64,000 nt of DNA from positions 343,834 to 407,833 of the forward strand of contig CAZRMV010000001.1 of the NCBI GenBank assembly GCA_964601275.1. The letters run 5' to 3'. The translations under genes were made by a program, and so were the position numbers. This document shows positions 5,075-59,702 of the stretch, one piece after another; position 1 is the stretch's first letter; each line of letters begins with the position of its first letter. The notes below the pieces were generated by a model that saw nothing but the letters and a program-made list of their open reading frames with translations, searched no databases and was not told the origin of the DNA. The stretch comes from an uncultured bacterium (GTDB lineage: Bacteria; Krumholzibacteriota; Krumholzibacteriia; JAJRXK01).

Positions 5075-5128
5075 AAGCGCTGCCGATGGAAGCGGTCCCG
5101 CCACCGGGGCGGGCGCCTTCCCGGGAGA

Positions 5129-6163
5129 ATGCGCGTCGGATTCATCGTCACCCATCGTGAACAGGCCGAACGCTTCGAAGCGGTCCTCCGGCGCACGCCC
5201 GGGGCGCGGTTCCTCGTGCCCGCCGGCCGCTGGCCCTCTTTCCATCACGACCCCCGCCAGGAAGTGTTGCAGTGGCTCGTGCGACACGGGCTTTTCCCGG
5301 TGATCCGGCCGAGCGCCGATTTCGACCTGGTGATCACGGCCGGGGAGATCCCCGAGGCGTCCACACGAAGCTGGTTGCGACCGCACGGCACGATCATCGG
5401 GTGGCGGGATCCCTCGGTGGTTCCCCTGCCCAGCCGACCTTCGCTGGTGCTCTGTTCCGGCCCCGCCTTGCGGCCCGCCGAAGGCAACCGGCCGTGGGCG
5501 GTGGTGGGCGATCCACTGCTCGACGCGGCCCGGGAGCCGGGCGCCCGCTTTCGCGCCCGCGCGGCCCTGGGCCTTCCCTCGCGCTCGGAGCGGCGAATGC
5601 TGCTCCTCCACTTCGAACGAGATCCCGCCGGACTCGGAGGCCTGGTGGAAGACCTGGCCCGGTGGCGCGGGGAGGTCGACCTGGTGGTCACCGCCTCGAC
5701 CCGGGTCCGCCTGGGTTCGCCCACGCCCCTGCCCCGATGCCTGAGTGGGCCGGGAGTCTACAGGCCAGGGGACAGCATTCCCCACGCGGACCTTCTTGCC
5801 GCGGCCGATCTCGTGCTGGCCGAGCCGGGGCCGCTCCTGGTGGAGGCGGCCGCCCTGGGATGTCCGGCATACGGGTTGGGGAGCTGGAATCGGCCGTCCC
5901 GCCGGAGCGGAGCGGTCGAGGATCCCCTCGATCGTATCCTGGGTGGCTGGCAGTGGATCGACGACGGGGAACAACTGCGGAAGGTGATCGCCGCCCATCC
6001 CCACCAGTGGCGGGAATGGAGCGAGGCCATCCGGCCCGTCGCCGAGACCCTCCTGGGGCCGGCCGACGGACGGTCGGTGCAGCGCATGGTCGAGTGCCTG
6101 CGGCTTCTCGGACCCCCCCAGGGAGCGGAGGCCGACCCGGCCGGAACTACTCTCCGGGAATGA
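5129..6163 (+). CDS. hypothetical protein, GT-B-fold glycosyltransferase-like (weakly LpxB/MurG-like)
   Basis: 344 aa. N-terminus MRVGFIVTHREQAERFEAVLRRTPGARF and C-terminal ADLLAAADLVLAEPGPLLVEAAALGCPAYGLG resemble GT-B nucleotide-sugar-binding segments. By-eye similarity only. Confidence 0.4.
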   Translation: MRVGFIVTHREQAERFEAVLRRTPGARFLVPAGRWPSFHHDPRQEVLQWLVRHGLFPVIRPSADFDLVITAGEIPEASTRSWLRPHGTIIGWRDPSVVPLPSRPSLVLCSGPALRPAEGNRPWAVVGDPLLDAAREPGARFRARAALGLPSRSERRMLLLHFERDPAGLGGLVEDLARWRGEVDLVVTASTRVRLGSPTPLPRCLSGPGVYRPGDSIPHADLLAAADLVLAEPGPLLVEAAALGCPAYGLGSWNRPSRRSGAVEDPLDRILGGWQWIDDGEQLRKVIAAHPHQWREWSEAIRPVAETLLGPADGRSVQRMVECLRLLGPPQGAEADPAGTTLRE

Positions 6164-6980
6164 GCACCGGGCCGGAAGGGACCAGGGGAGGGCCGCCCAG
6201 GCGGGCGGTCCCGCGTTCCTGCCGCGGGAAATCCTTCCAGGGAGCCAGGACCATCTCCAGGGTGTCCACGCAGAGCTGGGGGTGGGGCGATCGGGTGGTT
6301 TCCTCGGTGAGGACGAAGCCGGCGCACCCGTCGGCGGCGAATTCACTCAGCTCTTCCAGTTGCGAGAGTTCGGGCATCACCGAATCGATCATGGTGTCCA
6401 GCAGTCCACCCTGCAGAAGCAGGGGGCGTTTCCGGCCGGCGGCCAGGACCATGGCGCGCTCGACGTGGCGGCGGGTCATCTCCGGGCCGATCCGACGGAC
6501 CATCTCCCCGTAGGGGACGACCACCGCATCGGCGGCCGCGGCGAGCTGGGACAGCGTCGGGTCATCCATCTCTTCCAGGGCGCCGGGGGTGCAGGCGATG
6601 CGCGTCGTGGGTGCGAGGAGTTCACGGGCGCGCAGCAGTTCCTCTTCGCCGGTGACGCCCCGCAATCCCACCCAGGGAAATCCCTCCGCGGCGGCGAAGA
6701 TGAGGAATTCGCTGGTGGTCAACAGGCTGGTCCGGGTGGGGTCGCCCGGGCCGGGAAGGTCGAGCAGCGCGGGTTGCGTACAGCGCGCGCGGAGGCGGCA
6801 GATCTCCTGCAGGCTCCCCCGTGAGGCGTCCAGGCGGACCAGATCGATGCCGTGGAGCGAGGGAGTCTGCGCTTCGATGGTGGCGAGGATCCGGGGGCGG
6901 TCGCATCGGAGGGGCCGCGCGGGCCTCACCGGCGCCATGAGACAGGGGCCATCGGTGACGGCGGCGGGTCGACGAGTCAT
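6147..6980 (-). CDS. pyruvate-kinase-like TIM-barrel protein lacking the B (lid) and C-terminal domains
   Basis: Within ORF 6147..7181. Start ATG at 6978-6980 is preceded by GGAGGAAGGG. PRILATIEAQTPSLHGIDLVRLDASRG matches the PK N-terminus KIVCTIGP...NFSHG. LLDLPGPGDPTR matches ILLDTKGPEIRT. The segment AAADAVVVPYGEMV...QGGLLDTM matches the PK A-domain region SDGIMVARGDLGVE...ATQMLESM. Only 278 aa. Confidence 0.55.
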   Translation of the reverse strand: MTRRPAAVTDGPCLMAPVRPARPLRCDRPRILATIEAQTPSLHGIDLVRLDASRGSLQEICRLRARCTQPALLDLPGPGDPTRTSLLTTSEFLIFAAAEGFPWVGLRGVTGEEELLRARELLAPTTRIACTPGALEEMDDPTLSQLAAAADAVVVPYGEMVRRIGPEMTRRHVERAMVLAAGRKRPLLLQGGLLDTMIDSVMPELSQLEELSEFAADGCAGFVLTEETTRSPHPQLCVDTLEMVLAPWKDFPRQERGTARLGGPPLVPSGPVLIPGE

Positions 6981-8574: not shown

Positions 8575-9171
8575 CTAGGCGGGATCGGCCAGTTCGTGCT
8601 CGAGCCAGGCGCAGAGGATGTGGCCGGCGAGGATGTGGCATTCCTGGATCCGGGCGGTATGACCGCTGGGAACCTTCAGAAGGTGGTCGCAGAGTTCTTC
8701 GCGTTCCATCCGTCCTCCGCCCCCGCCGGTCATGCCCAGGGTGACCAGGCCGAGACGGCGGGCGGTGCGCAAGGCCCGGACCACGTTCTCGCTGTCCCCG
8801 CTGGTGGAGATTCCGAGCGCGATGTCGTGGGGATGGGCTCTTCCCTCGAGCTGGCGGGCGAAGATCTCCTCGAAACCATAGTCGTTGCCGATCGCGGTCA
8901 GGGCGCTCGAGTTGACGGTGAGGGCTTCGGCGGCCAGAGCGGGGCGTTCCCGCTGGAAACGTCCGCTCAATTCCGCCGCGATGTGCTGCGCGTCGGCCGC
9001 GCTGCCCCCGTTGCCGAAGGCCAGGAGAGCTCCTCCGCCGCGCAGCGCCTCGGCCACCGCCCGGGCCATCGCCGCGATCACCGGCGCCTGCTCCAGGAGA
9101 GCCTGTTTCACCTCGATGCTCGACTGGATGCGACGGCGGACGAACTCGAGCTCGAGAGGGCGCTCGTTCAC
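8575..9171 (-). CDS. gmhA: D-sedoheptulose-7-phosphate isomerase (phosphoheptose isomerase, SIS domain)
   Basis: 198 aa; GmhA-type SIS motifs LAFGNGGSAADAQHIAAEL, ALTAIGNDYGFEEIFARQ and GISTSGDSENV. Confidence 0.85.
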   Translation of the reverse strand: MNERPLELEFVRRRIQSSIEVKQALLEQAPVIAAMARAVAEALRGGGALLAFGNGGSAADAQHIAAELSGRFQRERPALAAEALTVNSSALTAIGNDYGFEEIFARQLEGRAHPHDIALGISTSGDSENVVRALRTARRLGLVTLGMTGGGGGRMEREELCDHLLKVPSGHTARIQECHILAGHILCAWLEHELADPA

Positions 9172-24776: not shown

Positions 24777-24974
24777 GCCCTTCCGGTCGACGATTCCGGC
24801 ACAAGGATTGCCTTGGATCGAGGGGGGCGGCCCCTTGACGACCCTGTCGTCAGGATCTCCCGAGGGACCCCCGGTGCGACAGGCCCCACTTCCGGAGTAT
24901 CCATGATGACTCCCCACGAGGAGATTCCCAGCGTGACCTCCCCGGCCTCTCCGGGACGTCAACGCTTGCGTACC

Positions 24975-26003
24975 ATGCAGGCGATGGTCCTGGACCCGCA
25001 ACCTCGACTGGCCGCGGTCCGGCGTCCCCACCCGGACGAGGGCGAGGCGCTGGTGAAGGTGCGCCTGTGCGCGATCGCCCGGAGTGATCTCGATCTCGCG
25101 CGGGGTCATCGGCCGGTAGCGCATCATCCCTACATCATGGGTCATGAATTCGTGGGCGAGGTGGTGGAGGCCACCACCGAAGCCGGGGCGAGCTGGGTGG
25201 CAAAACGGGTGATCGCCTACCTCAATCCGCCGTGTCACCGATGCCTTTCCTGCCAGAACGGTCGGACCTGGCTCTGTGAAACGGGAATGACCCGCGCCCT
25301 GGGCATGGGGGTGGTGGACGGCGCCCTGGCCGAGTGGGTCGTCGTTCCGGAAAGCTCGTTGGTGGAGGTTCCCGAGCAGGTGGACGACCAGGAAGCGGTC
25401 TTCGCCCACCCGCTCGCCAGTGCCCTGGAGGCCGCCGGCTGGGTCAATGGTCCGCCTCCCCAGCGCGTGCTGATCGTCGGAGACGGGAAACTGGGTCTGC
25501 TCACCACCCTGGTGTTCCACGCTGCCGGGCACACCGTGAGTGTGTTGGGGCGTCACCCCTCACGTCGCGAACTCCTGTGGCGCAGTGGAATCTCCTTCAG
25601 CGGCGTCCGCCGGGCGGGCGAAGAGGGCGAGGGTCTTTCCGGGGCCAAGGTGGTGAAGGAATCGCACAGCCTGGTCATCGATTGCTCGGGCCATCCCTCG
25701 GGACTGGAATTGGCCGTCGATGCGGTGCGACCCCGGGGAAGGATCGTGTTGATGAGCCGCTATTCCGAAGAGGAAGGCTTCGACCTCCGTTTTGTCACCG
25801 AGAAGGAGATCGACCTGGTGGGAGTTCGGGGAGGGCGCCTCGACCGCAGCCTCGAGTATCTCCTGCGCAAGCGGATCGACATCCTCCCGCTGGGTGCCGC
25901 GACCTATCCGCTCCTGGATGGGATGGCCGCCTTCGACCAGGCCTCCACCCGGGGGGCGCTCAAGGTCTTCGTCCGACCGTCTCCGGGGGGTGGGTCGTCG
26001 TGA
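24975..26003 (+). CDS. zinc-containing alcohol dehydrogenase (MDR superfamily)
   Basis: Start MQAMVLDP within ORF 24813..26003. Catalytic Zn motif GHEFVGEV; structural Zn Cys CHRCLSCQNGRTWLC; Rossmann GDGKLG. Confidence 0.8.
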   Translation: MQAMVLDPQPRLAAVRRPHPDEGEALVKVRLCAIARSDLDLARGHRPVAHHPYIMGHEFVGEVVEATTEAGASWVAKRVIAYLNPPCHRCLSCQNGRTWLCETGMTRALGMGVVDGALAEWVVVPESSLVEVPEQVDDQEAVFAHPLASALEAAGWVNGPPPQRVLIVGDGKLGLLTTLVFHAAGHTVSVLGRHPSRRELLWRSGISFSGVRRAGEEGEGLSGAKVVKESHSLVIDCSGHPSGLELAVDAVRPRGRIVLMSRYSEEEGFDLRFVTEKEIDLVGVRGGRLDRSLEYLLRKRIDILPLGAATYPLLDGMAAFDQASTRGALKVFVRPSPGGGSS

Positions 26004-45466: not shown

Positions 45467-46663
45467 ATGAAGTCTCCTGTCTGGCGCGCACTTGCGCTGT
45501 TTACCCTGGCCATGGTCGTGATGGGGGTGGCGACGAACGCGAACGCCGCTCGTCGATCGGCCCTGGCCGGCAACTACTTCATCGACGACGCGGACGACAT
45601 GTTCGCGTTCCCGCAGCTCTATGGCCAGTACCAGAACATGGCGATCCTGGACTTGGCTCCGAGCAACTTCAGTACGAACATGCAGGGCAACGCCACCCTG
45701 GTCTGGGGCGGAGAGAACCACACCTTCCGCTTCAGCACCGGACGGCAGGACGCCACGGCCCGGACCACCCTGTTCACCTGGGGCGGATTCGACCGCTTCC
45801 CGACCTACGGGACCTTGAGCGGAGGCCTGTTCGCCTCCGCTCCCCAGGCCCGCAACTTCCAGTGGTGGGATCTGGGCTGGGCGACCCGCCTGGGCGACAT
45901 GCCCTTCGGCTTCGCCTTCTCCTGGGTGGCTGACGCGAACAGCTTCGACGATGGGACGAATCCCAAGGATCCGGACAACACCTTCAACAACTACAACTTC
46001 CAGTTGGGTCTGAGCCCCAGCGAGAATCTCGAGCTGGCGGCCGAGATCGGCTTCGGAAGCTTCAGCGACAATGCTGCGGTCGCTCCGGCGAACAACGACT
46101 TCAGCACCGTCAACTTCGATTTCACCGGCCGGGGGCGTGTCGACGACCTCTGGGGGGTCAACTGGCGCTACCTGGCGGGCTTCGCCTACGCGAAGTACAG
46201 CCCGGATGATGCCACCATGGACGATCTCAAGGAGCTGGCCTTCCGGGGCAGCTTTGGACCGGTCTTCGGGAATCCCGGACAGTGGGAGGTCGCGGGATAC
46301 CTGACCTTCGACTACGGCAAGTTCGACGACAACGGGGACGCTGGGGACCCCACCGACGACGTGTCGACGAAGGAGACCACGCTGCCCGGCTACAACCTGG
46401 CGGGGGAGTACTACTTCAACGACTGGTTCGTGGTGCGGACCGGAGTGGTTTCCTCCTACGTCTATCACCAGTTCGAGAACGGAGCGACCACCGACAAGTC
46501 GCGGGAATTCCGGTACACCTGGACCGCCGGCTTCGGAATCGACAAGGACACCTTCGGGGTGGACTTCGCGTTGAACGAGGCGGCGCTGCACTCCGGATAC
46601 TTCCTCAATGGCAGCATCGACAGCGATGCCTTCGCCTATCTCTCGGCCTGGTTCAACTGGTAG
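45467..46663 (+). CDS. outer-membrane beta-barrel protein (porin-like)
   Basis: Signal peptide MKSPVWRALALFTLAMVVMGVATNANA. Alternating aromatic/polar beta-strand pattern, rich in G/N/D/F/Y/W. C-terminal SAWFNW ends in an aromatic residue as in OMP C-terminal signatures. Strong RBS GAGGAG. Confidence 0.6.
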   Translation: MKSPVWRALALFTLAMVVMGVATNANAARRSALAGNYFIDDADDMFAFPQLYGQYQNMAILDLAPSNFSTNMQGNATLVWGGENHTFRFSTGRQDATARTTLFTWGGFDRFPTYGTLSGGLFASAPQARNFQWWDLGWATRLGDMPFGFAFSWVADANSFDDGTNPKDPDNTFNNYNFQLGLSPSENLELAAEIGFGSFSDNAAVAPANNDFSTVNFDFTGRGRVDDLWGVNWRYLAGFAYAKYSPDDATMDDLKELAFRGSFGPVFGNPGQWEVAGYLTFDYGKFDDNGDAGDPTDDVSTKETTLPGYNLAGEYYFNDWFVVRTGVVSSYVYHQFENGATTDKSREFRYTWTAGFGIDKDTFGVDFALNEAALHSGYFLNGSIDSDAFAYLSAWFNW

Positions 46664-47364: not shown

Positions 47365-47850
47365 ATGACAGCCCTGGATCGGCCGGGTCTCGCCCGCCGG
47401 GTCCTTCTGGACGCGGTGCGGGTGAGCAATCTCTTCGACCGACGATGGGGCGCCGTCACCCAGCGCGCGGACATCACCTCTGCCCAGTGGCTTACGCTCG
47501 GTCTGCTGGTGCGGGAGGGGGGCGAGGTGGGATTCTCTCCCACCGAACTCTGCCGTCGGCTCTGCGTCAGCAAGCAGAACATGACGGGGATGATCGGGCG
47601 CCTGGAAGCAAAAGGTCTCATCGAACGCCGCCCGGACTCCCACGATCGACGCTCGTTTCGGGTACTCACCACCGAAGCGGGAACCACCGCGGTTTCGACC
47701 CTGGCGCCCTTTGAGGATGAATTCTTTCTCCGGCACGTCGATGGCCTCGACGAGGAGCAGTTGAGGGAGACCCTTCGGTGTCTCCGGACGGTGCTCGAAC
47801 ATCTCGAGGCTGAAGAGAAGCGGGCCAAGAAGGCCGCGGCCGCTTCCTGA
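47365..47850 (+). CDS. MarR-family transcriptional regulator
   Basis: RBS GAGGAGG before the ATG. wHTH region ITSAQWLTLGLLVREGGEVGFSPTELCRRLCVSKQNMTGMIGRLEAKGLIERRPDSHDRRSFRVLTTEAG. Confidence 0.85.
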   Translation: MTALDRPGLARRVLLDAVRVSNLFDRRWGAVTQRADITSAQWLTLGLLVREGGEVGFSPTELCRRLCVSKQNMTGMIGRLEAKGLIERRPDSHDRRSFRVLTTEAGTTAVSTLAPFEDEFFLRHVDGLDEEQLRETLRCLRTVLEHLEAEEKRAKKAAAAS

Positions 47851-47898: not shown

Positions 47899-49032
47899 TC
47901 AGGCGGAGGGCGGCGTGGTTCCGGTCACCGCGGCCGCGAAATGGGACCACGAGAACCGCGGTCTCGCGCGCACGACCGCGTCCTCCATGGGTACCTGGAG
48001 CTTCTCCGCGAAGAACCGGATCACCGCCGCGGCAAGGGCGGCCGAATCGCCGGGGGGCACGAGCAGGCCGGTCACCCCGTTCTCGACCACTTCTCCCAGG
48101 CCTCCCACCTCCGTGGAGACCACCGCGCGCCCCATGTGGTAGGCGACGGGGATGATTCCGCTCTGGGTGGCGTGACGGTAGGGAAGGACCACCACGTCGG
48201 CGGCGGAGAACCAGGGGGCGACCTGGTCGTTGGGGATGTAGTCGGCCACGAACCGCACCGCGTCCTCCACTCCCTCCCGCCGGACCAGCTCGCGGTAGCG
48301 TGTCTCGTCCTCGTAGAACTCCCCGACCACGAGCAGGCGTGCCCGCGGGCGCGCGTTCCGGATGGCGGGCAGGGCGGAGAGGAGGAGATCGAGTCCCTTG
48401 TAACGGCGGATGAATCCGAAGAAGAGAAGGATCTCATCCTGCGGATCCAGCTCGAGCCGAGCCCGCGCCGCGGCGCGATCCATCGCGTCGCCGAACTGGC
48501 CGTAGAGCGGATGCGGCGTGACCGCGACCCGGGCGGAGGGACAACAGTGGAGCAGGTCCTCCTTCACCGCCTGGGTCATCACCACGAAACGGTCGGCCCG
48601 GGAGAGGAACCACCGGGTGAGCAAGGCGTCCATCGGACGGCGTTCGTGGGGGACCACGTTGTCGGCCACCACCACGGTCTCCGGGCGTCCCCGGCGGACG
48701 CTGCCCCGCAGGATACTCCCGAAGCAGGGCGCGAAGAACGGCATCCAGTAGCGGAACACGAGCAGGTCGGGATCGAGCCGGCGGATTCTCCGGGCGGTCT
48801 TCCACCAACTCCAGGGTTGGATCGAGTCGATCCATGGTTCGGCGCCGACGTCGAGCGCGGCCTCTCCCGGGTGGGTCTGGGACTTCCCGGGGAAGAGCAG
48901 CGCCGGGTACTGCCGGGAGAAGGTGAGGACGTGCACCTGGTGATGCCGCTTCAGTTCACGGGCCAACAGATCGTTGAAGTGGGCGATGCCACCCCGCCAG
49001 GGGCTGGCCGGTCCCAACAGTACGATGCGCAT
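47899..49032 (-). CDS. GT4-family glycosyltransferase
   Basis: Start MRIVLLGPASPWRGGIAHF within ORF 47899..49416 (the N-terminal 128 aa of that ORF are low-complexity). Donor-binding GT4 signature VVLPYRHATQSGIIPVAYHMGRAVVSTEVGGLGEVVENGVTGLLVPP. Confidence 0.85.
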   Translation of the reverse strand: MRIVLLGPASPWRGGIAHFNDLLARELKRHHQVHVLTFSRQYPALLFPGKSQTHPGEAALDVGAEPWIDSIQPWSWWKTARRIRRLDPDLLVFRYWMPFFAPCFGSILRGSVRRGRPETVVVADNVVPHERRPMDALLTRWFLSRADRFVVMTQAVKEDLLHCCPSARVAVTPHPLYGQFGDAMDRAAARARLELDPQDEILLFFGFIRRYKGLDLLLSALPAIRNARPRARLLVVGEFYEDETRYRELVRREGVEDAVRFVADYIPNDQVAPWFSAADVVVLPYRHATQSGIIPVAYHMGRAVVSTEVGGLGEVVENGVTGLLVPPGDSAALAAAVIRFFAEKLQVPMEDAVVRARPRFSWSHFAAAVTGTTPPSA

Positions 49033-49184: not shown

Positions 49185-51203
49185 ATGGACCGGGCAGATC
49201 TGATTCTGGGCTCTCTCTTGGCCTACTCCCTGGCCTGTGCCCTCCACCTGGGGCTCGCGGCGATGATCTTCGCACGTCGCCCCCGCCACAGCGAAGTGAA
49301 GATCTTCGCCGGGGCGAATCTCGCGCTCTCCGCCTGGCATTTCCTGCAACTGGTCGAGTATGGCATGGCGCTGCGGACGGGCGGCATCGATCCCTGGTGG
49401 GCGGTGCAGCTGGCACGGGCCCAGGTGATGCTCGAGCTGCTGGTCCTGGTCGTCTTCCTGCAGCTCTTCGCGACCTTCCAGCGGCTGTACCGTCGACCGC
49501 CGCCGAGTCTCCGCGCCGCCATCGTCACCCACGTGCAGCGTCACCGTCGGGTCTACATCGGATTCGCGTGGTGGGGATTGCTCATGGCCCTCTTGCTCTA
49601 CGCCACCGGCGGCGAGCGCTTCCAGGCGCAGGTAGGGCAGTGGCGTTCGCTTCTCGGACCTCTGTCCGCGTATCTCTTCGCCGGGGTCCTCATCTTCCTC
49701 ACCCTGATCCTCTTTCCCGCGCGGCCCGGTCAGGAAGAGGTGGGGGTGGCGGTCGTGGGCCGCGGTCTGCTCCTGTTCATTCTCTCCTTGTGCGCGGTGC
49801 TCGTGGCCTTCTGGCACGATGCGCACCCCACCCGGGTTCGTCTGGCGGTGCTTCCGCTCCTCCATCTGCAGAGCGTTTCCTTCGTCATCTTCTTCAGCCT
49901 GGTCCGATACGAGTTCTCCTTCATGGACCGGTACATCCGCGACGGGCTCCGGTTGCTCTTGTGGTCGGCTCTCGCACTGGTCGTCTACTTCACCTCCAAC
50001 CGGATCGAGTTCGTGGGAGAAAGCTGGGGGCGCTACGCAACGAGCTTGGCCCGGGTGGGACTCATCTTCCTGGCGGTCGCCATCGGACCGGCGTTGGACC
50101 GGGCGAGCCGGCCGTGGCTGGATCGGGTCTTGTTCGACCGCGATGTCAACCTGTACCGGGCGGTGCACCGTTTCGCCGAACGGTTGAGCCGCTCCCGTTC
50201 GCTCACCGAACTGGAGAAGGGAGCCCTGCAGGACATCCAGGCTGCGGTGCACCCGAAGACCTTGCGGTTGTTGGTGGGAGACACGCCGCGCCATCGGAGG
50301 ATCGCCGAGACCCTCGACGACGGGGAGGTCCGTTATCGCTTGAGGATTCCCCTCTTGGCGGCGGGAAGGGCGATGGGCTGGTTGCTTCTGGGGGAACGGC
50401 GCAACTGCTACCCCTGGTTCGACGCCGAACGCCGCTACCTGCGGCTGGTGGGCGAACTGTTGGGAAGCGCCCTGGACGCCATGGGGGCCGGCATGCTCGA
50501 AGTCCGCAGCGGGGCGGCCCAACGCGGCCGCCGGGAGGATCTCGAGAACGAGATCGAGACCCTTCGCCAGGAGCTGCATGCGACGCGCCGCGAGTGCGAG
50601 GCGGCGCGCCGCGAACTGGCGGAGATGAAGGAGAGGCTCGATCCGCAGCTCATCGACGCGGTGCTGGAGATCGCGGTGGAGGTCGCCGAACGCGACGCGG
50701 ACGAGGCCCTGCAGATCCTGAGCACCCTGCGGTGGACCTACGCGTACATCCTCGAAGGGGGCAATCCCCTGGTGACCCTTCGTGTGGAGATGGCCTTCGC
50801 CCGCGATCTGTTGGCCCTGGAGAAACTGCGCCTGCGCAATCAGCTCGAGGTCAGCCTGGCCCTCGACCCCGTCCTCGAGCGGCAGCTCGTTCCCCGGAGG
50901 ATGCTGCAGCCGCTGATCGAGAATGCCCTCAGGCACGGTCTCTCCCGCGAGTTGCGGACGGGCAGGATCCACGTGGGCGCAAGAGCGGTCTCCGGCCGGT
51001 GCGAGATCACGGTGGAAGACAACGGGCGGGGCTTCCTGGGCGATCTGCACCAGGACGCCCTGCGGGGCGACGGAGGATTGGCCCGGGTCCTGCGCGCGCT
51101 CCGCCGGGCCTTCGGGGACGAGGTTTCCTTGCGGCTGCAATCGCCGCGGGAACCGGGCACCCGCATCTGCCTCGAGTTCCCCATCCGTCTCGAGGGCGAA
51201 TGA
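49185..51203 (+). CDS. LytS/YehU-type membrane sensor (His_kinase PF06580-like + HATPase), phospho-acceptor His apparently replaced by Gln
   Basis: About 6 N-terminal TM helices and a linker. A LytS-type dimerisation/H-box region ERLDPQLIDAVLEIAVEVAERDADEALQILSTLRWTY aligns to the consensus QINPHFLFNTLNSI...LSDLLRYSL with Q at the His position. N-box MLQPLIENALRHGL; G-boxes TVEDNGRGF and GTRICLEFP. Confidence 0.7.
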   Translation: MDRADLILGSLLAYSLACALHLGLAAMIFARRPRHSEVKIFAGANLALSAWHFLQLVEYGMALRTGGIDPWWAVQLARAQVMLELLVLVVFLQLFATFQRLYRRPPPSLRAAIVTHVQRHRRVYIGFAWWGLLMALLLYATGGERFQAQVGQWRSLLGPLSAYLFAGVLIFLTLILFPARPGQEEVGVAVVGRGLLLFILSLCAVLVAFWHDAHPTRVRLAVLPLLHLQSVSFVIFFSLVRYEFSFMDRYIRDGLRLLLWSALALVVYFTSNRIEFVGESWGRYATSLARVGLIFLAVAIGPALDRASRPWLDRVLFDRDVNLYRAVHRFAERLSRSRSLTELEKGALQDIQAAVHPKTLRLLVGDTPRHRRIAETLDDGEVRYRLRIPLLAAGRAMGWLLLGERRNCYPWFDAERRYLRLVGELLGSALDAMGAGMLEVRSGAAQRGRREDLENEIETLRQELHATRRECEAARRELAEMKERLDPQLIDAVLEIAVEVAERDADEALQILSTLRWTYAYILEGGNPLVTLRVEMAFARDLLALEKLRLRNQLEVSLALDPVLERQLVPRRMLQPLIENALRHGLSRELRTGRIHVGARAVSGRCEITVEDNGRGFLGDLHQDALRGDGGLARVLRALRRAFGDEVSLRLQSPREPGTRICLEFPIRLEGE

Positions 51204-51288
51204 GCTTCTGCGGCGGATGGCGGAGACGAGGCCGGTGCGGAGGGCGAGGGAAGTGCGCCGGATCCTCGATGCGGCCGCCATGTCACAC

Positions 51289-51963
51289 TCACGGGTGCAG
51301 GTACTTGTAACCCTTCTCCCCTGCCCGGACGGCGGCCTTCAGGCGGTTGCGTTCGGGGGTGATCGGGCAGGACCATGCGCCGCCGTAGGCGCAGTAGGGA
51401 TTGTAGGCCCGGTTGAGATCGAGACGGTACCGGCCGTGGCCCAAGGGAACGGGATCGAGGTAACGACCGGCGGGGTAGGTCTCCACCTCGGTGGTGGCGT
51501 CCAGGAAGGGCAGGAAGAGTTCTCCGTCATCGAGCATGCGGTAGACCGGAAGTCTTTCCATGCCGGCTCCCAGGTCCAGGAGGAAATATCCGATCTCCTC
51601 GGCCTTGCGATCCTCGCCCCCGGTGTCGGGAATGGTGGTGGGACGCGGATGCGCCAGCGGGATCAAGGGGCCCTCCAGGACCCAGCGGGGATCGGGCGGG
51701 TAGAACTGGAGCCCTTTCCAGTGGGGCAGGTCTTCCTTGGGGATCGGTGATTGGCCGGGGTCGCGCCAGGCCCGCTCCCGCGCGGCGCGCTCGGCGCGGA
51801 TCGCGTCCAGGTAGGATGCGGGATCGTCCAGCCGGGCCGGACGGCAGAGTTCGTCGGAACCGCCCCACCCGCAGCCGGCCAGCCAGAGTGCGGCGAGCAG
51901 CAGGAACCCTCCAGTGTACCAGGGCCTCGATCGTGGTCTGATGTCTTGCCTGGATCGCGCCAT
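51289..51963 (-). CDS. DUF1684-family lipoprotein
   Basis: Lipoprotein signal LLLAALWLAGC. DUF1684 signatures FYPPDPRWV, YPAGRYLDPVPLGHGRYRLDLNRAYNPYCAYGGAWSCPITPERNRLKAAVRAGEKGY. Confidence 0.75.
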   Translation of the reverse strand: MARSRQDIRPRSRPWYTGGFLLLAALWLAGCGWGGSDELCRPARLDDPASYLDAIRAERAARERAWRDPGQSPIPKEDLPHWKGLQFYPPDPRWVLEGPLIPLAHPRPTTIPDTGGEDRKAEEIGYFLLDLGAGMERLPVYRMLDDGELFLPFLDATTEVETYPAGRYLDPVPLGHGRYRLDLNRAYNPYCAYGGAWSCPITPERNRLKAAVRAGEKGYKYLHP

Positions 51964-52013: not shown

Positions 52014-54479
52014 TTGCCATCGGCCAAGACCGTCATCGTCGTTCTCAACTGGAACGGCAAGCAGGACACCCTCGAGTGTCTCAAGAGCCTGCAGAACGTC
52101 ACCGGCCCCGAGCACGAGATCCTCGTGGTGGACAACGGGAGCGAGGACGGGAGCGAGGAAGCGATCCGGGCCGCCCATCCCGGGATTCCCGTCCTTCAGA
52201 CCGGCTCGAACCTGGGATTCGCCGGAGGGAACAACCGGGGCATCGAGTGGGCCCTGGAGCACGGTGCCGACTTCGTCCTCCTGCTGAACAACGATACCGT
52301 GGTGGCCCCGGATTTCCTCGAGGCCATGGTCGCGGTGGCGCGGGAGGACCCCCAGGTCGGCGTGGTGGGCGCCAGCATCGCCTACGAGGAGCGCCCCGAC
52401 CGACTGTGGGCCTTCGGGGGCGGGCGTTTCGACATCGCCACCGGCTGGGTGCGTCATCTGCAGGAACCGGTGGAAGGCGAGAGACTTCTCCCGCAGGGAA
52501 ACCGGCATTTCTACGTCACCGGTTGCGCGATGCTTCTTCGCCGCGAACTGCTGGAGGAGGTCGGCCTTCTGGACACCTCCTACTTCCATTTCTGCGAGGA
52601 CGTCGATCTGTGCCTTCGCGCGGAGAAAGCGGGGTACGCCGTCGCGGTGGCAGACCGGGCGCGGATCCTACACAAGGTGTCGGCCACCACCCGCGTCTCC
52701 TCCCCGCTCTTTCTCTACTACAACCTGCGCTCGCGCTTGAGCCTCGTGCGCCGTCACGGTCCCGAAGGCGCACCCTCGGCACGGGCGGTGGCGCTTCTCT
52801 GGCTGCGGCTGTGGCGCCCCGCCCTCCTCAGCGGAATGGCGTGGTCCGGATGGAGCGCCTTGCGGCAGGCCTACCGCGACTGGAAGGAAGGACGCCAGGG
52901 GCCGGCTCCGGCCGGCCTGGGATCGTCCGGAAGGAAGCGGGGCCTGCTCGCGGTGGCGGTCTTCCTGCTGTTGGTGGGGGGATGGTGGGCCGGGGGGCAG
53001 CGCTGGCGTTCGGAATCCCGGAACTCTTCGGCCGGCGCGGCGTCTTCGCCGAGCGTCCAGGACCGCCAGCTTCGGTTCGGGGCCGATGCCCGCAGCGAGG
53101 AGGAGATCCTGCGTGCGCTCTGGAAGGATGAAGAGGGGGATCCGCCCCAGGATCTCGCCCACGCTCTCTACGCCATGGCGGCCGACTCCAGCCTGGCCCG
53201 CCGGGTCCGGCAGAGGGCCGACCGGCGCTCCCGGCGGCTCACCCACCGGCTCCTCACCCTGCTCGATCTGAGCGACCGTCAGGCCCGGGAGAGGATCGAC
53301 GGGCTCTACGAGGTGCACGATTTCGGGGCCCAGCCCGGTCACCGTCCTCCCACATGGAGCGACCTGCGCCGCCAGGGAGTCGAGCTGTTGCAGGCCATCG
53401 CGCTCGATCCGGAAAACGGCCGCGACGCCCGCCTCCTGCGGGAGATCGCCGGGGACGAACTCTCCCACACCCGCGGGTACGCGCGCGCCAGCCTGGTGGC
53501 GGCCCGGGTGGAACTGTGGAAGGCCTGGTGGATCGATCGGGGAATGGATCCCCGCCTGTGGTTGGACCCGGCCCGCCGGCCCGACCCCGGGCCCTGGCTC
53601 AGGGCCCTGCGTTCGCCCCCCGGACGGGGCGGCCGCACCCTCCTCGACCTGCTCGAGGAGATCCTGGATCATCCGCTGGCCCGGAGGGTCCTGCTGGACT
53701 CCCTCGATCGACGGGTGGACGAGGAGCTGGTCAGCGAGTGCGTCCAGGTGGCGATGATGTACCAGGTCGATTTCTCCGCCGCCGGTTTTTCCCGGCGGCA
53801 TTGGGATGCGCAACGGGGGCGCATGGTGGGACACAACGCCTCGGAGCTCCGCGACGTGGCCCTGGAGATGTTGCCCCGGGTGTGTTCCTTTCTCCCCAGC
53901 GGGGCCACCGAGGACGAGGTGATCAAGAGCATCGCGTTCTGGTGGAAGGGGGCGCGCTTCCAGGCGCAGTACTATCGCGATCCGGATGCCGCTCCCACCC
54001 TCGAGCCCTGGCTGGCCGGTCTGGACCGGCCGGCCGATGAGGGCGGGATGCCCATGCCCCGCATCTTGCGCCAGTGGTACGTCGCCGATGGGTTCCAGGG
54101 CATCCTCCTGGACCAGTTGGACCGGGTGGGTCAGGGCCTGGTTGCCGAACTCATCGAGTGGCTCGGCTACGATCAAGAGCAGGCGCGCGCGCGGGGATTC
54201 GTCTTCGCCTACCGCCGGATGCCCCTGCGACCGGTGCCCGGCGATCAGGGTCGGATGTGGGCCATCCCGTGGAGCGGGGTCCAGGCTCTCATCCGAGAGA
54301 TGCTACGGCGGATCACCGGCGACGCGGGACTTCCCGAGCAGGGGATGGAAGAAGACCTGCGCAACGGGTTCTGGATCGATTGGTGGAGGGCCCACGCCCA
54401 CGAGGCGCGCTGGTATCGCAACGGGCGGCCCCAACCCGCTCCTCCGCGCTTCGAGATGGAACGCGCGGGAGGAGACTGA
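52014..54479 (+). CDS. GT2-family glycosyltransferase (WbbL/rhamnosyltransferase-like 'NWN' subfamily) fused via a TM helix to a ~480-aa C-terminal domain of unknown function
   Basis: N-terminal ~290 aa with VIVVLNWNGKQDTLECL, ILVVDNGSEDGS, NLGFAGGNNRGI and DxD-like FCEDVDLC. One predicted TM segment (LLAVAVFLLLVGGWWAGG). The helical, W/R-rich C-terminal domain matches nothing I recognise. Confidence 0.75.
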   Translation: MPSAKTVIVVLNWNGKQDTLECLKSLQNVTGPEHEILVVDNGSEDGSEEAIRAAHPGIPVLQTGSNLGFAGGNNRGIEWALEHGADFVLLLNNDTVVAPDFLEAMVAVAREDPQVGVVGASIAYEERPDRLWAFGGGRFDIATGWVRHLQEPVEGERLLPQGNRHFYVTGCAMLLRRELLEEVGLLDTSYFHFCEDVDLCLRAEKAGYAVAVADRARILHKVSATTRVSSPLFLYYNLRSRLSLVRRHGPEGAPSARAVALLWLRLWRPALLSGMAWSGWSALRQAYRDWKEGRQGPAPAGLGSSGRKRGLLAVAVFLLLVGGWWAGGQRWRSESRNSSAGAASSPSVQDRQLRFGADARSEEEILRALWKDEEGDPPQDLAHALYAMAADSSLARRVRQRADRRSRRLTHRLLTLLDLSDRQARERIDGLYEVHDFGAQPGHRPPTWSDLRRQGVELLQAIALDPENGRDARLLREIAGDELSHTRGYARASLVAARVELWKAWWIDRGMDPRLWLDPARRPDPGPWLRALRSPPGRGGRTLLDLLEEILDHPLARRVLLDSLDRRVDEELVSECVQVAMMYQVDFSAAGFSRRHWDAQRGRMVGHNASELRDVALEMLPRVCSFLPSGATEDEVIKSIAFWWKGARFQAQYYRDPDAAPTLEPWLAGLDRPADEGGMPMPRILRQWYVADGFQGILLDQLDRVGQGLVAELIEWLGYDQEQARARGFVFAYRRMPLRPVPGDQGRMWAIPWSGVQALIREMLRRITGDAGLPEQGMEEDLRNGFWIDWWRAHAHEARWYRNGRPQPAPPRFEMERAGGD

Positions 54480-54493
54480 AGGACGGACCCAGG

Positions 54494-56629
54494 ATGCGAC
54501 CTTCCCTTTTCTTCCCGCGATCCCCTCGTCCCCCCGGGGCGTTCGTGCTCTTCGGCCTCTGGGTCCTTCTGATCGTGGGGGGCGCACTCGGGTGCGGTGG
54601 CTCGGTCCCCCTGCGCCGGACCGGCGCCCTGAACCGTCCGGAACTCATGGATCACCCGGCGATCGAGAACGCCGCCATCACCTTGCTCGAGGCGGCCCGG
54701 GCCGCCCTGCGCGACGGGGTGGCGCCCGACGCCCCCCAGCGCTGGATGCTCAGCCCCCTGGTCACCGGGGACGGCGATTGGGAGGCCTCGGTGCTGTGCT
54801 GGGACCTGGCCAGCCGGATCGGCCGGCTGCGCCCGGTGGACGCCGGGGACCGGCTCGAGTCGGTGCCGGCGATCCAGGCCTGGCTGCGCCGGGTGGGTTC
54901 GGAGGCGGTGGTCTGGGTGGTCACCAGCCGGGGGAGGTATCGACCGAGTCTGGGGCTCACCATCTGCTCGGGAACCCGGAGCTGGTCCAGCGCGCCGGTG
55001 GAGGTGGGGATTCCCCGCGACGAGATCTGGGCCTGGCCCTTCGATCCGCAGGAGAACCCTCCTCTGGCCCGGCTCGATCTGGACGGCGGCGAGGCCTTCT
55101 TCGAATGGGAAGGGAAGGTCTACGTGGAGGATCGCCGGGGCGCCCGGGAACTGAGCTGGCACCGGGGCAAGAGGGAACTGGTGGCCGGCAAGCTGCGCCC
55201 CTGGAAGGACTTCGGCCGCACCTGGATCACCCGGCACCAGGGGCTGCCCGAAGATCCCAGTCCCGCCTTGAGCCTGTTGCGCCGGGATCTGCGCCTCGTC
55301 CTGCGGGATCTGGATCTTCCCCGCGGGGAAGGGGAGATCATGCGATGGTGGTTGAGCCGGGGAGGGGGCGCCATCGAGCTGCCCCTGCGCCGTGCCACCG
55401 CCGAGCAGGTGCGGGGAATCCAGGCGGCTCCCCGGGGTTGGGACGAACGGGGTACCTGGCTGGTCCTTCGCGAAGCCCCCGGCCACAACCCCTGGGTCGA
55501 ACTCTATGCCGCGTCGTTGCGCAAGCTGCCCCGACCCAGGGAACGGAAGGAGAACCCCAGGGAGACCATCCGGGTGCTCTGTGATGTGGACCATCCGTTC
55601 ACCCTCCCGGGACCCGCGTGGGCCCTGAAGGAGACCCATGAACTCGAGATCGCGCGGACGCCGCCGGGAGTGGACTGGGCCTTGACCGCGCGTTGGAATC
55701 CCCTGTTTCCCTGGCTCAGTCCCCTGGAATTCTGGCAGCGGGGGGTGGTGGGTCTCGATGCGGTGCGTCGGGGAGAGATCGATCCTTCGATGCACGTGGT
55801 GCGGATGTGCGCCCTCGAAGACGAGTTTCCCCGCTGGGTGGCCCGATCCGCGAGGGGACCGTTGGCGCTGGGGGACCGCGCGTTCTGGCGTCGATTCCCC
55901 GCCATTCCGCTCTACGGCGTGGCACGGGTCGATCCACGGCTGCCCCGCCGGGTGCGCCGGACCCTGGCCGGATGGTTGGCCCAGTTGGGGCCCTTCGAAC
56001 TCTTCGGCCTGGACCGCGAGGATCTCCGGCCGCGGATGCCCCTCACCGGCGATCTGCGTCCTCCCCGGGAAGACGCCGGGCCCGCGCCTTCGCAGTGGCC
56101 CTTGGCGGTGGTGGATTCGCTCCGGGAGCGGGGAGGGTTGCGTCTCAGTTTCTGCGGATCTCCCGGTCTGCTGGATCCCTCTCCCTACACCTGGCGGCGG
56201 GAACTGGAACGACGGCTGCGATTCCTCCTGGAGCAGGCGGGGGTCCCGCTGGCCCCGAGGTCGCAAGGCGCGGCGGGACCGGAGTGTCCGCCGGAGACCC
56301 GGTATGCCACTCCTCTGCCCAGCGGTGTCGACCTGGCGCGGCTGATCCTTCCGTTCGCCGAACCCCGCGCGCGGATGGACGCGCTGCTGACCGGCCTGGG
56401 ACTGCGGGAGAGGTGGCGGCGGGATCACCCGGAGAGCGACCCGTCCGAGGTGGAAGAATGGCTTCTGGACGAGGGCTACCTGGTGCCCTTGTGGACCGAA
56501 CCGGGAGCGGTCTTCATCGACCGGCGCCTGGCGGCGTGTGTCCATGATTCGATGATGGTCCTACCCGACCTGCGGGAGGCGGTCCTGGTTCCCGAGGAAG
56601 AACTCGCACCCTTCGACCGGCAACGATGA
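54494..56629 (+). CDS. secreted/lipoprotein-like hypothetical protein (711 aa), W-rich periplasmic domain of unknown function
   Basis: Start MRPSLFFPRSP within ORF 54074..56629, 14 nt after the GT2-fusion stop. Signal region FVLFGLWVLLIVGGALGCGGS. Its stop overlaps the next gene's ATG (ATGA). No family recognised. Confidence 0.5.
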   Translation: MRPSLFFPRSPRPPGAFVLFGLWVLLIVGGALGCGGSVPLRRTGALNRPELMDHPAIENAAITLLEAARAALRDGVAPDAPQRWMLSPLVTGDGDWEASVLCWDLASRIGRLRPVDAGDRLESVPAIQAWLRRVGSEAVVWVVTSRGRYRPSLGLTICSGTRSWSSAPVEVGIPRDEIWAWPFDPQENPPLARLDLDGGEAFFEWEGKVYVEDRRGARELSWHRGKRELVAGKLRPWKDFGRTWITRHQGLPEDPSPALSLLRRDLRLVLRDLDLPRGEGEIMRWWLSRGGGAIELPLRRATAEQVRGIQAAPRGWDERGTWLVLREAPGHNPWVELYAASLRKLPRPRERKENPRETIRVLCDVDHPFTLPGPAWALKETHELEIARTPPGVDWALTARWNPLFPWLSPLEFWQRGVVGLDAVRRGEIDPSMHVVRMCALEDEFPRWVARSARGPLALGDRAFWRRFPAIPLYGVARVDPRLPRRVRRTLAGWLAQLGPFELFGLDREDLRPRMPLTGDLRPPREDAGPAPSQWPLAVVDSLRERGGLRLSFCGSPGLLDPSPYTWRRELERRLRFLLEQAGVPLAPRSQGAAGPECPPETRYATPLPSGVDLARLILPFAEPRARMDALLTGLGLRERWRRDHPESDPSEVEEWLLDEGYLVPLWTEPGAVFIDRRLAACVHDSMMVLPDLREAVLVPEEELAPFDRQR

Positions 56630-58356
56630 GTCTGCGGCTTCGATGGACCCTGGTCCTCTCGGCGGGTGCACTCCTGCTGTTGGGGGTGACCGGCGGGTTC
56701 ATCCTGCACCAGGCGCAACAGATCGAGCGGGAAAGCGACACAGCCTGGAGGAACGAGCGCGCCGGCGCGTTGCAGGAGGGACTTCGGCAATGGTCCCGGG
56801 TCACGGCGGCCGCCCTGGACGACCTGGTCGGATCTCCGCGCTTCGGCGCGTTCCTGCGGCAAGCGGTCCCACAGGAAGACGAAGGGCGGCGTGAGGTGGT
56901 GCTCTGGGCCGAGCGTTTCGCTCCCCGTTTCGGACTCGAGCTGTTGATCGTTCTGGACGAGGACGGAAGGATCCTCAGCCAGGTGCCCGGCCCCGAGGCC
57001 CACGGGATCGTCCATCCCCATTTTCCGTGGTTCACCCGGGCGGCCCCCGGCGGCCCGGAGAGCGGGGTCGCCGTCTGGCCCGGCTGGGTTCGAAGAACGG
57101 ATTCTGCGCCCACGCTTGAACGGCCGTGGTGGGTGGGGACGATCCGCCGGGTTCGACCGGCCGGCGAACGCTCGATCTGGGTCGTGGGGGCCCGGGAACT
57201 CTCCCGGTCGGTGCAAGTCGATCTGGCCGCCCGCGCCGGCCTGGAACGGCTGGAGATGGGACTGGAGGTGGGTGGGCTCCAAGTGGCGCCTCTACCCCCG
57301 GACTGGCGCGCGATGGAGCCTCTTCCCCTGGTCTTCGATCCCGGCCCGTCCCCGGCGGCCGGGGTCCTGCGAGATCTGCGGGCGCGCCTGTCGCGGCGAC
57401 TTGCGCTGGGAGCGGTCCTCGTGCTCCTCTTGACTCCCTGGGTGGCGGCCGGATTGACCCGGCCGGTGCGTCGGCTGCAGGACGCGGTGAGCCGGATGCG
57501 GGCGGGAGAGCGTCGACTCGAGTTGAAGACCCGGGGCCCCCGTGAACTGCGGGAGCTGAGCGAGGCCCTGGTCCAGCTCTCCCAGGAGCTCGACGCGATC
57601 CAGGCCCGGGCGGAAGCCCAGCAGCGGCAAGCGGCGTGGGGTGGAATGGCGCGGCGAGTGGCCCACGAGCTCAAGAACGCGCTCAGTCCCCTCACCCTCG
57701 CCCTCGACAACGTGGAAACCGCGGCCCTTTCGGAACCGACCGAAGAGATGCGGGAGGATCTTCGCAAGAGCCTCGGGACCGCCCGCGAACAACTGGCGAG
57801 TCTCGACCGGCTGGTCCGTGGCTTCCGGGATTTCGCCCGCATGCCCCCCCTCGCGGTGGAGGAGGTCGACGCGCGGGCGCTGGCCGCTGCCGCGGTCGCC
57901 GCGGTCGAGACCGCCTTCGACCGCCACCGTTTCGTGGTGGAAGAGCGCTCCACCGTCGGAGCCATCGAGGCGGACGGAGAGCAGTTGCGCCGGGTGATGC
58001 AGAATCTCCTGCAGAACGCGGCCGAGGCGAGCCTGGAGGGAGTGGTGGAATTGACCCTGGGGGCCGGACCGGGACCGGGGCAATGGTGGTTCGCGGTCGG
58101 CGATCGTGGACCGGGTCTGCCCGAGGAGATCCGCCGCCATTGGGGCGAAGCGTACCGGACCACCAAGGCGGAAGGGACCGGCCTGGGCCTGGCGATCGCC
58201 CGGCAGGTGATCGAAGCGCATGGGGGACGTCTGGATGTACAGGACCGTCCTCGCGGAGGGCTCCTGGTGCGCGCCACCTTGCCGCGCAAGCAGCAAGCGA
58301 CAACCGTGTCCCGGCCGGCCTCGCCGCGGGACCCGCGAAGGGAGGATCGCCGATGA
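56626..58356 (+). CDS. sensor histidine kinase (TM, HAMP, HisKA of NtrB/AtoS type, HATPase_c)
   Basis: Two TM segments (N-terminal; second in [19 protein letters not shown]). H-box [14 protein letters not shown]; N-box [13 protein letters not shown]; G-boxes GDRGPGLP and [18 protein letters not shown]. Confidence 0.8.
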
Positions 58357-59702
58357 GCCCCCGGATCCTGGTGGTCGATGACGAGAGAAACATCCGCGTC
58401 ATGCTGGAGCAGATGCTGCGGCTGGCCCACTACGAGGTGGAGTGCGTAGGGACCGCCGAAGAAGCGCTGGAGCGCTGCCGGCAGGGGGGAGTGGACGCCC
58501 TGTTGCTGGACGTGCGTCTTCCCGGGATGGATGGGCTCGGTCTGTTGAAGGCCCTGTTGGCCGAGGATCCCCGCCTGGCCGTGGTGATGATGAGTGGACA
58601 CGGCACCATCGAGACCGCGGTGGAGGCGGTGCGCGCGGGCGCCCTCGATTTCCTGGAGAAACCGCTCACCCGGGACAAGACCCTCCTGACCCTTGAGAGC
58701 GCGTTGCGCCGGGGAGAACTCGAACGGGAGAACCGGCGCCTCAAGGAAAAGGGTTTCCGGCACGAGTTGCTCGGTGATTCGAAGGTGATGGCCGCGCTCC
58801 GGGAACAGATCGCCAAGGTTGCGCCGACCACCGCGCGGGTTCTCATCGAAGGGGAGAGCGGAACCGGCAAGGAGCTCGTCGCGCGGGCGATCCATCAGCA
58901 GAGCCCGCGCGCCAAACGCCCCTTCCTCGCGGTGAACTGCGCGGCCATCCCGGGTGAACTCATCGAGAGCGAACTCTTCGGCCACGTACGGGGCGCGTTC
59001 ACCGGGGCGACGACCGCGCGAAGCGGGGTCTTCGAGGAAGCCGACGGCGGCACGCTCTTCCTCGACGAGATCGGGGACATGCCCTTGCCGATGCAGGCGA
59101 AGCTGCTGCGGGTTCTCGAGTCCTCCCGCTTCGCCCGGGTCGGGAGCACCCGGGAGCTGACCGTCGACGTGCGGGTGATCGCCGCGACCCACCACGACCT
59201 GCCCGGGGAGGTCCGCAAGGGAAACTTCCGCGAGGATCTCTACCATCGTCTCAAGGTGGTGCCCCTGCGCGTTCCGCCCCTGCGGGAGCGGGAAGGAGAT
59301 ATCGTGCAGTTGGCGCGGCACTTCCTGCGCCTGGAATGCGCGCGCCAGAAGAGTCCTCCCCGCAGCTTCACCCCCGCAGCGCTCCGCGCCCTGCAGGCCT
59401 ACCGGTGGCCGGGGAACGTCCGGGAACTCCGCAATCTCATCGAGCGCCTGGTCATCCTGGGCTCCCACGAAGACATCGGGCGGGACGAGGTGGGTGCCGC
59501 CCTGGCCGGCGCGGGGGAGAGCGAGGTGGTAGCGGACCTGAAGAGCGCGGTCGAGAAGGCCGAGCGGGAAGCGATCGGGGCGGCCCTGCGGGCCAGCGGG
59601 GGCAACGTGAGCAAGGCCGCCCGACGTCTGGGACTCGAACGCAGTCACCTCTACAAGAAGGCCCGGGCGCTGGGCATCCCCCTGCGCGAGGACGAAGCCT
59701 GA
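58353..59702 (+). CDS. sigma-54-dependent response regulator (NtrC family: REC, AAA+ sigma54-activator, Fis-type HTH)
   Basis: Start [11 protein letters not shown] overlaps the HK stop (ATGA). REC D in [12 protein letters not shown]. Walker A GESGTGKE; GAFTGA motif in VRGAFTGA; ESELFGH; C-terminal [29 protein letters not shown]. Confidence 0.9.

Follow-up and report, generated by a model that had tools for sequence, protein, structure and literature searches.

BtsS (YehU) of Escherichia coli and the other kinases of LytS-LytTR systems combine a multi-pass membrane sensor and a GAF-like domain with a dimerization and histidine phosphotransfer (DHp) domain of Pfam family PF06580 and a HATPase_c catalytic and ATP-binding (CA) domain that has an unusual N box and a short ATP lid. 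The 5TMR_LYT domain is said to be characteristic of all LytS-type kinases, and in BtsS His382 is the site of phosphorylation and the variant BtsS-H382Q cannot be phosphorylated (PMC10653868). A histidine-kinase fold can also be without the acceptor His, as in DivL of Caulobacter crescentus, where the position is held by Tyr and the fold now serves signaling through bound proteins in place of phosphotransfer (PMC4211667, PMC5361649). Here we analyze a gene at positions 49185-51203 (+ strand) of a 64,000-nucleotide stretch of DNA (the window; contig CAZRMV010000001.1, positions 343,834 to 407,833) from an uncultured bacterium of the Krumholzibacteriota. The gene encodes a LytS-like sensor of 672 aa that has the layout of BtsS, with a multi-pass membrane sensor, a putative GAF-like domain, a PF06580 DHp and a HATPase_c domain with the unusual N box and the short ATP lid. 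Unlike BtsS, it carries Gln at the position of His382, where most of its family carries Glu, and the rest of the NPHFLFN motif is gone. We interpret the protein, with a probability of roughly 70 to 85%, as a maintained pseudo-histidine kinase. Pseudo-histidine kinases are already known as a class; the family-wide loss of the His with acidic replacement, together with an ATP site that has been kept and a regulator that is gone, is to our knowledge, after a search of the literature, undescribed for PF06580 proteins.

The phospho-acceptor position and the ATP site

An earlier note, made from the letters of the window alone, had described a kinase-like sensor with N and G boxes and with Gln in place of the phospho-acceptor His. 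The open reading frame (ORF) lies exactly where that note placed it, its product matches PF06580 and HATPase_c, and its start codon is confirmed by the MDRADL with which all orthologues begin. The Gln is residue 488, encoded by a CAG codon at 50646-50648 (+), and it occupies the acceptor column in the alignments of four methods. In phmmer against PDB sequences, D486-P487-Q488 pairs with the N-P-H of 6swj. BLASTP against BtsS (taken from NC_000913.3; E 1e-24, residues 378-671, beginning inside the GAF-like segment) pairs Q488 with H382 (RLDPQLIDA versus QVNPHFLFNA). The same register is obtained when the family profile is aligned by hhalign with BtsS (probability 99.3%, aligned residues 477-666 only) and with 24 His-bearing relatives. 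In an hmmsearch alignment that took in the 150 best representatives and the earlier hits, the Gln488 column holds His in 126 of the 138 non-family PF06580 proteins. The register is anchored by the conserved Pro487 and by the downstream blocks; the original alignment by eye was not shifted, and no neighboring His stands at the acceptor position. Because the protein sequence and the CAG codon are identical in three independent metagenome assemblies, Gln488 is not a sequencing error. With BtsS-H382Q being kinase-dead, the window protein naturally bears a textbook kinase-dead substitution.

A search of 5.8 billion proteins returned 22 full-length or partial relatives, from 100% to ∼35% identity, and also matched two distant canonical kinases. 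When 1.84 billion representatives were searched exhaustively with a profile, only ∼14 scored as family members (at least 238 bits), and the next scores, at 205 bits or below, belong to generic PF06580 kinases. The genome hits of the family are all metagenome-assembled genomes (MAGs) of Candidatus Krumholzibacteriota, except for one unclassified MAG. The His-less family is rare and confined to this phylum. None of its 25 alignable sequences retains the acceptor His; the column holds Glu in 17, Asp in four, Arg in two, Gln in one and Ala in one, so that 21/25 members have an acidic residue at the former His position. The Gln is unique to the window protein. The Gln-for-His replacement first reported therefore holds as an absence of His and not as the substitution that took place: the orthologues use GAA or GAG (Glu) at the acceptor codon, which leaves the CAG of the window one step from Glu and argues against a recent change from His. 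As read from the alignment, the His was lost from the family long ago, rather than by a recent His-to-Gln change. Erosion extends through the H box: Asn at the fourth position past the His is found in 0/25 family members, compared with 127/138 of the other PF06580 proteins.

One family member, P0008 (836 aa), has a C-terminal extension of ∼160 aa (alignment columns 800-956) that resembles an antisense translation of the downstream DUF1684 gene and compares with the window ORF at 50923-51750 (+). The extension is probably the result of a lost stop codon or a gene-calling artefact and not a real domain.

The ATP site has been kept. The boxes named in the earlier note are present in the CA domain as the N box LQPLIENALRHGL (50904-50942, +), the G1 box VEDNGRGF (51012-51035, +) and the G2 box GDGGLAR (51066-51086, +), and these contain the Mg-coordinating Asn, the adenine-binding Asp and the glycine-rich lid, respectively. 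Across the family, N580, H584 and G585 of the N box are each kept in 24/25 members, D612 and G616 of G1 in 24/25 and G614 in 25/25, and G630, G631 and L632 of G2 in 23-24/25. The single exception to retention of the ATP motifs is P0021, a truncated protein from which the N box is gone. Among the top matches outside the family, 12 proteins are also His-less, and 10 of these 12 are missing the N and G boxes as well; a His-less protein with an intact ATP pocket is thus unusual. AlgZ/FimS of Pseudomonas aeruginosa, a LytS-family protein with a degenerate kinase core, reportedly keeps the His without the ATP-binding motifs, the reverse of the pattern seen here, in which the His is lost and the ATP motifs are kept.

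Purifying selection maintains the sensor gene. Compared with the closest orthologue (81% identity), the ratio of nonsynonymous to synonymous substitution rates (dN/dS) is 0.16 overall, and by domain 0.16 for the transmembrane (TM) region, 0.09 for the GAF-like domain, 0.14 for the CA domain and 0.44 for the DHp, on which selection is the loosest among the folded domains. These values come from the closest pairs only; distant pairs were set aside because their dS is saturated or undefined.

Domain layout and His-bearing relatives

Residues 1-317 (49185-50135, +) form a Pfam-blank, polytopic membrane domain with ∼9 predicted TM helices, as compared to 7 in BtsS, and with an N-out, C-in topology that agrees with the positive-inside rule as judged from loop charges. 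A confident AlphaFold model of residues 1-320 (pLDDT 81, pTM 0.77) likewise has ∼9 TM helices and resembles 7-TM receptor bundles; the full-length model has a pLDDT of 78. The most conserved motif of the family, VRYEFSFMDRY (residues 240-250; 49902-49934, +), is located in the cytoplasmic turn between TM7 and TM8, and its R241, Y242, E243, F244, F246 and D248 are invariant. Invariant polar residues elsewhere in the membrane domain include H21, E37, N45, R154, S161, Y163 and W210. The cytoplasmic part begins with a GAF-like domain (residues 323-432; 50151-50480, +), modeled by AlphaFold as an alpha/beta fold and weakly matched by GAF_3 (residues 365-431; E 0.0084, with a score of 17 bits where the cut-off is 27). 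It continues through a long, poorly conserved linker helix of the model (residues 450-482; 50532-50630, +; mean pairwise identity 0.21) into the degenerate PF06580 (His_kinase) DHp (residues 477-554; 50613-50846, +), which is modeled as two helices over residues 487-549 and scores 25.6 bits against a gathering cut-off of 25.2. The CA domain (HATPase_c, PF02518; residues 570-667; 50892-51185, +) matches at 38.3 bits.

The first ∼360 residues have no Pfam match, and 5TMR_LYT (PF07694) does not match the sensor up to E 1. The LytS/YehU architecture originally ascribed to the protein therefore applies loosely: the polytopic N terminus, PF06580 and HATPase_c are in place, and the characteristic membrane domain is not. 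An NCBIfam scan of the sensor gave no meaningful family. The PEP-CTERM kinase PrsK (TIGR02916), considered for its similar length and polytopic/GAF layout, has no match in the sensor.

A fold search with the DHp-CA module returned GanS, DivL (4q20), HK853 and RetS. The best match among solved structures is the kinase domain of GanS from Geobacillus stearothermophilus (6swj/6swk; phmmer E 7.7e-10; Foldseek E 1e-7, target TM-score 0.71), which, unlike the sensor, has a canonical NPH motif; GanS presumably belongs to a YesM-like branch that pairs with AraC-type regulators. With a DHp-CA module that has no phosphorylatable His at the acceptor position, the sensor has the fold by which pseudo-histidine kinases are recognized. 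It differs from DivL in that DivL has a DHp of the HisKA type, PAS domains and the partners DivK~P and CckA, whereas the sensor has a DHp of the PF06580 type, a large membrane domain and only candidate partners.

The next-best hits of the profile search have 620-680 aa, and their alignments start at about residue 150-245. Such His-bearing relatives score 77-102 bits on PF06580 (94-102 for the next-best hits) versus 25.6 for the sensor, P-H-F-x-F-N is invariant in them, and their N-terminal region is likewise Pfam-blank. An hhalign comparison of the family with 24 of the relatives spans 612 columns (7-668 versus 9-641; probability 100%, E 1.9e-60), covering the membrane domain and the juxtamembrane motifs, and the homology is thus full-length. 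The two groups share RF.FFD, LDR..GR and G.R.N..PYF motifs, and RF.FFD.FVKRG stands in the relatives where the family has VRYEFSFMDRY. Unlike the sensor, the four metagenomic relatives whose loci were examined (P0024, P0035, P0041 and P0050) keep PHFLFN and are each followed by a Response_reg-LytTR gene, with a receiver-SpoIIE gene intervening in two of the four. On these alignments, the sensor belongs to an unnamed polytopic GAF-PF06580 family, within a His-less clade of one phylum, and the Krumholzibacteriota proteins derive from a LytTR-coupled kinase family, both the His and the regulator having been lost. The absence of His from 25/25 family members, the purifying selection on the gene and the LytTR coupling of its His-bearing relatives bear out the proposal of the earlier note that this is a sensor without a canonical His or a LytTR partner. 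Since the acceptor His, 5TMR_LYT and the LytTR partner all fail, it should not be filed among histidine kinases of the LytS type.

The His-bearing relatives lie in a recurring cluster of an ABC ATPase, a MacB/FtsX permease, a TP_0789-like protein, an unknown protein of ∼410 aa, the kinase, an optional receiver-SpoIIE phosphatase and a receiver-LytTR regulator, as seen in L018 (253-8032), L023 (6-6681) and L022 (3304-7495). The cluster may tie their LytTR system to an export or efflux module. Many other next-best hits (730-840 aa; P0032, P0033, P0034, P0036 and others) match the profile's kinase part in two stretches; PF06580 is matched twice in P0032 and P0037, and HATPase_c also twice in P0032. 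Some proteins of this type (for example P0044, P0056, P0069 and P0081) have neither the His nor ATP motifs at the column examined. The two-stretch proteins may be paired active and degenerate modules.

Genomic neighborhood

The sensor gene lies in a block whose gene order is common to ten loci (the window and nine orthologous loci) down to 34% identity: PMT_2 (−), a protein of ∼400 aa with no family, QueF, MarR, in some loci GT4 (−), the sensor, DUF1684 (−), GT2, one or two unknown proteins, a HAMP-HisKA kinase, an NtrC-type sigma54 regulator and a TPR protein. The immediate neighbors in the window are those first reported, a divergent GT4 glycosyltransferase (47899-49032, −) identified by Pfam and a convergent DUF1684 lipoprotein (51289-51963, −; Pfam E 8e-40) with an LAGC lipobox, whose gene is syntenic at every orthologous locus. 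A MarR-family regulator (47365-47850, +; Pfam) is found upstream of the sensor in all 10 loci.

We searched for regulators in six-frame ORFs with phmmer and hmmsearch, filters off. No receiver or LytTR gene adjoins the sensor in the window, no LytTR gene was found in the 64-kb window or the nine orthologous loci with a five-seed LytTR profile, and no orphan receiver gene was found in the same loci. The sole receiver domain in the window is that of the NtrC-type sigma54-dependent response regulator (58353-59702, +), 7.1 kb downstream of the sensor, in agreement with the earlier statement that no response regulator is adjacent. It stands directly behind a canonical HAMP-HisKA-HATPase_c histidine kinase (56626-58356, +) that is kept in the orthologous loci and is likely its cognate kinase. 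A weak "receiver" match at 24777-26000 (E 0.007) proved to be a Zn-dependent dehydrogenase. Neither the HisKA kinase nor the NtrC-type regulator reaches any NCBIfam equivalog cut-off, and a PEP-CTERM system is not supported, as the downstream kinase, regulator and TPR protein match PrsK, PrsR and PrsT far below the cut-offs.

In L015, L016 and L017 the MarR gene and the sensor gene are on the same strand with a gap of 23-79 nt, which suggests an ancestral MarR-sensor operon; in L004 the gap is 212 nt. The GT4 gene is found only in the clade whose sensors are at least 69% identical (the window, L007, L009, L011 and L012) and is absent between MarR and the sensor in L004, L013, L015, L016 and L017. 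It looks like a lineage-specific insertion that split the probable MarR-sensor operon.

Several other features of the block vary or recur between loci. In L004 (48% identity), genes for class I fumarase subunits (5109-6649, −) and a glutaredoxin-like protein (8802-9071, +) are inserted; since the block tolerates such unrelated insertions, function should be read from adjacency with caution. The GT2 protein (window 52014-54479, +) has 821-833 aa in the window clade and L004, and ∼310 aa in the distant orthologues, where a separate ORF of 480-492 aa without annotation comes next (L015 12701-15117, L016 12730-15140, L017 8090-10461), suggesting fusion or fission of the gene. The unknown protein of 660 aa encoded at 54647-56629 (+) has no tblastn match in the distant loci. 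In one MAG, MFD05684.bin.2.283, the whole syntenic block occurs twice, on the large contigs 65837 (L007) and 65836 (L009), with sensors each ∼69% identical to that of the window; this is either co-binned strain heterogeneity or a large duplication. The gene at 45467-46663 (+) encodes 398 aa with a signal-peptide-like N terminus and no Pfam or NCBIfam match. The protein is syntenic in the closer orthologues, and proteins of similar size lie at the same place in the distant loci; its composition favors Gly, Asn, Phe and Tyr and its last residues are Phe-Asn-Trp, a hint of an outer-membrane beta-barrel.

Proposed signaling without the acceptor histidine

Without an acceptor His, an H box or a LytTR regulator, a His-to-Asp phosphorelay cannot run, and the canonical mechanism is excluded as far as sequence can show. 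The ancestor would have been a LytS/LytTR-type sensor in which a multi-pass membrane bundle for ligand sensing was joined to a GAF-like domain, a PF06580 DHp and a GHKL ATP-binding domain. In the Krumholzibacteriota lineage, the phospho-acceptor His would have disappeared along with what else made up the H box and with the cognate LytTR regulator. The membrane domain would still sense a ligand or the state of the envelope, and judging from its conserved motifs the CA domain has a somewhat better than even chance of still binding nucleotide. The signal would then leave by protein-protein contacts and not by phosphotransfer from His, a plausible mode, as in DivL. The most plausible partners would be the upstream MarR-type regulator, as in the ancestral arrangement, or the syntenic HisKA/NtrC pair, although naming either one, or any other specific partner, is tentative at best. 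The likely target of regulation would be the surrounding genes of cell-envelope glycosylation (PMT_2, GT4 and GT2).

Several points weigh against this interpretation. A pure scaffold has no obvious need of a conserved ATP site, which leaves room for an ATP-dependent activity. The case for ATP binding comes from motifs, and the first Gly of the canonical G2 motif GxGL is not conserved in the family. As for the partner, the opposite-strand GT4 gene separates MarR from the sensor in the window's clade, and adjacency to MarR counts for little, since synteny extends over the whole 20-kb block and takes in unrelated genes such as QueF. The search for regulators covered the 64-kb window and 20-kb flanks, and a LytTR or orphan regulator may be encoded elsewhere in the genome.

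The alternative that survives best, though we consider it unlikely, is that the GHKL domain is still an enzyme that phosphorylates a residue other than the canonical His, for example a Ser, Thr or Tyr, in the sensor itself or in a partner such as MarR, or that it acts as an ATP-gated switch. This would account for the persistence of the ATP-site residues in 23-25 of the 25 members despite the fully eroded H box, a persistence that most other His-less PF06580 proteins (10/12) do not show, and for the dN/dS of the CA domain, the lowest of the cytoplasmic output domains. Precedents are SpoIIAB and RsbW, which are GHKL-type Ser kinases, PDK and BCKDK among mitochondrial kinases, and the His-less ethylene receptors and phytochromes of plants. 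However, we found no conserved Ser, Thr or Tyr acceptor in the DHp; in the column of Tyr520, one half of the family has Tyr and the other half has His. Moreover, pseudo-kinases such as DivL keep the CA fold without a need of catalysis (PMC4211667). A more elaborate proposal, a signaling design not described before in which a 7-TM-receptor-like sensor controls the co-encoded MarR through the intact GHKL domain, without phospho-His or a response regulator, is quite improbable. Such control would work by phosphorylation of Ser, Thr or Tyr or by sequestration in an ATP-gated manner, and the Glu or Asp at the His position would be a permanent mimic of phospho-His, keeping the DHp-CA interface locked.

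Phosphatase activity persists in some histidine kinases that have no His, and the earlier note had raised the possibility that the sensor is a phosphatase. If it served a response regulator whose gene lies elsewhere, as a dedicated phosphatase or as a phosphate sink, it would make use of the predicted DHp-CA fold that has been retained. We nevertheless regard this role as very unlikely because the H box is eroded beyond the His, including the +4 Asn that the other PF06580 proteins nearly all keep, and because no partner regulator is found: the window and the nine orthologous loci hold no LytTR or orphan receiver gene, and the sole nearby regulator, of the NtrC type, has its own HisKA kinase. 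In HisKA kinases, the +4 position holds the phosphatase-determining Thr or Asn (preprint 10.64898/2026.02.27.708494).

Still less probable is a genuine histidine kinase that uses another His or that has been aligned in the wrong register. The window protein does have a His465 on the linker helix, 23 residues upstream of Gln488, but this residue is not conserved even in the orthologue with 81% identity. The His at the Tyr520 column, in DHp helix 2 of the distant half of the family, occurs in one subclade only and lines up with the canonical Tyr of LRYsL. Residues 440-560 contain no His that is conserved family-wide; the ones that are invariant, or nearly so, are H21 and H211 of the membrane domain and H584 of the N box. 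A wrong register is opposed by the agreement of the four independent alignment methods. The least credible alternative is a decaying relic or an assembly artefact without function, for which one could cite the marginal PF06580 score, the truncated P0021 without its N box and the fact that most of the more distant members have no kinase domain on record, but against which stand intact full-length ORFs with invariant motifs from 100% to ∼35% identity across the phylum, the overall dN/dS of ∼0.16 and the identical protein in three independent metagenomes.

The finding that the sensor is His-less is solid and is sharper than first reported. Histidine kinases are usually annotated, and counted in censuses of signaling proteins, by domain hits alone, and in the annotation of Krumholzibacteriota MAGs this gene should not score as a working two-component kinase. 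A whole lineage has long kept a LytS-like sensor without its His, its phosphatase-type residue or its response regulator, and with the ATP pocket preserved. The family is a natural experiment on what the DHp-CA module can do beyond phosphorelay, and its proteins form a set that lends itself to tests after expression in a heterologous host.

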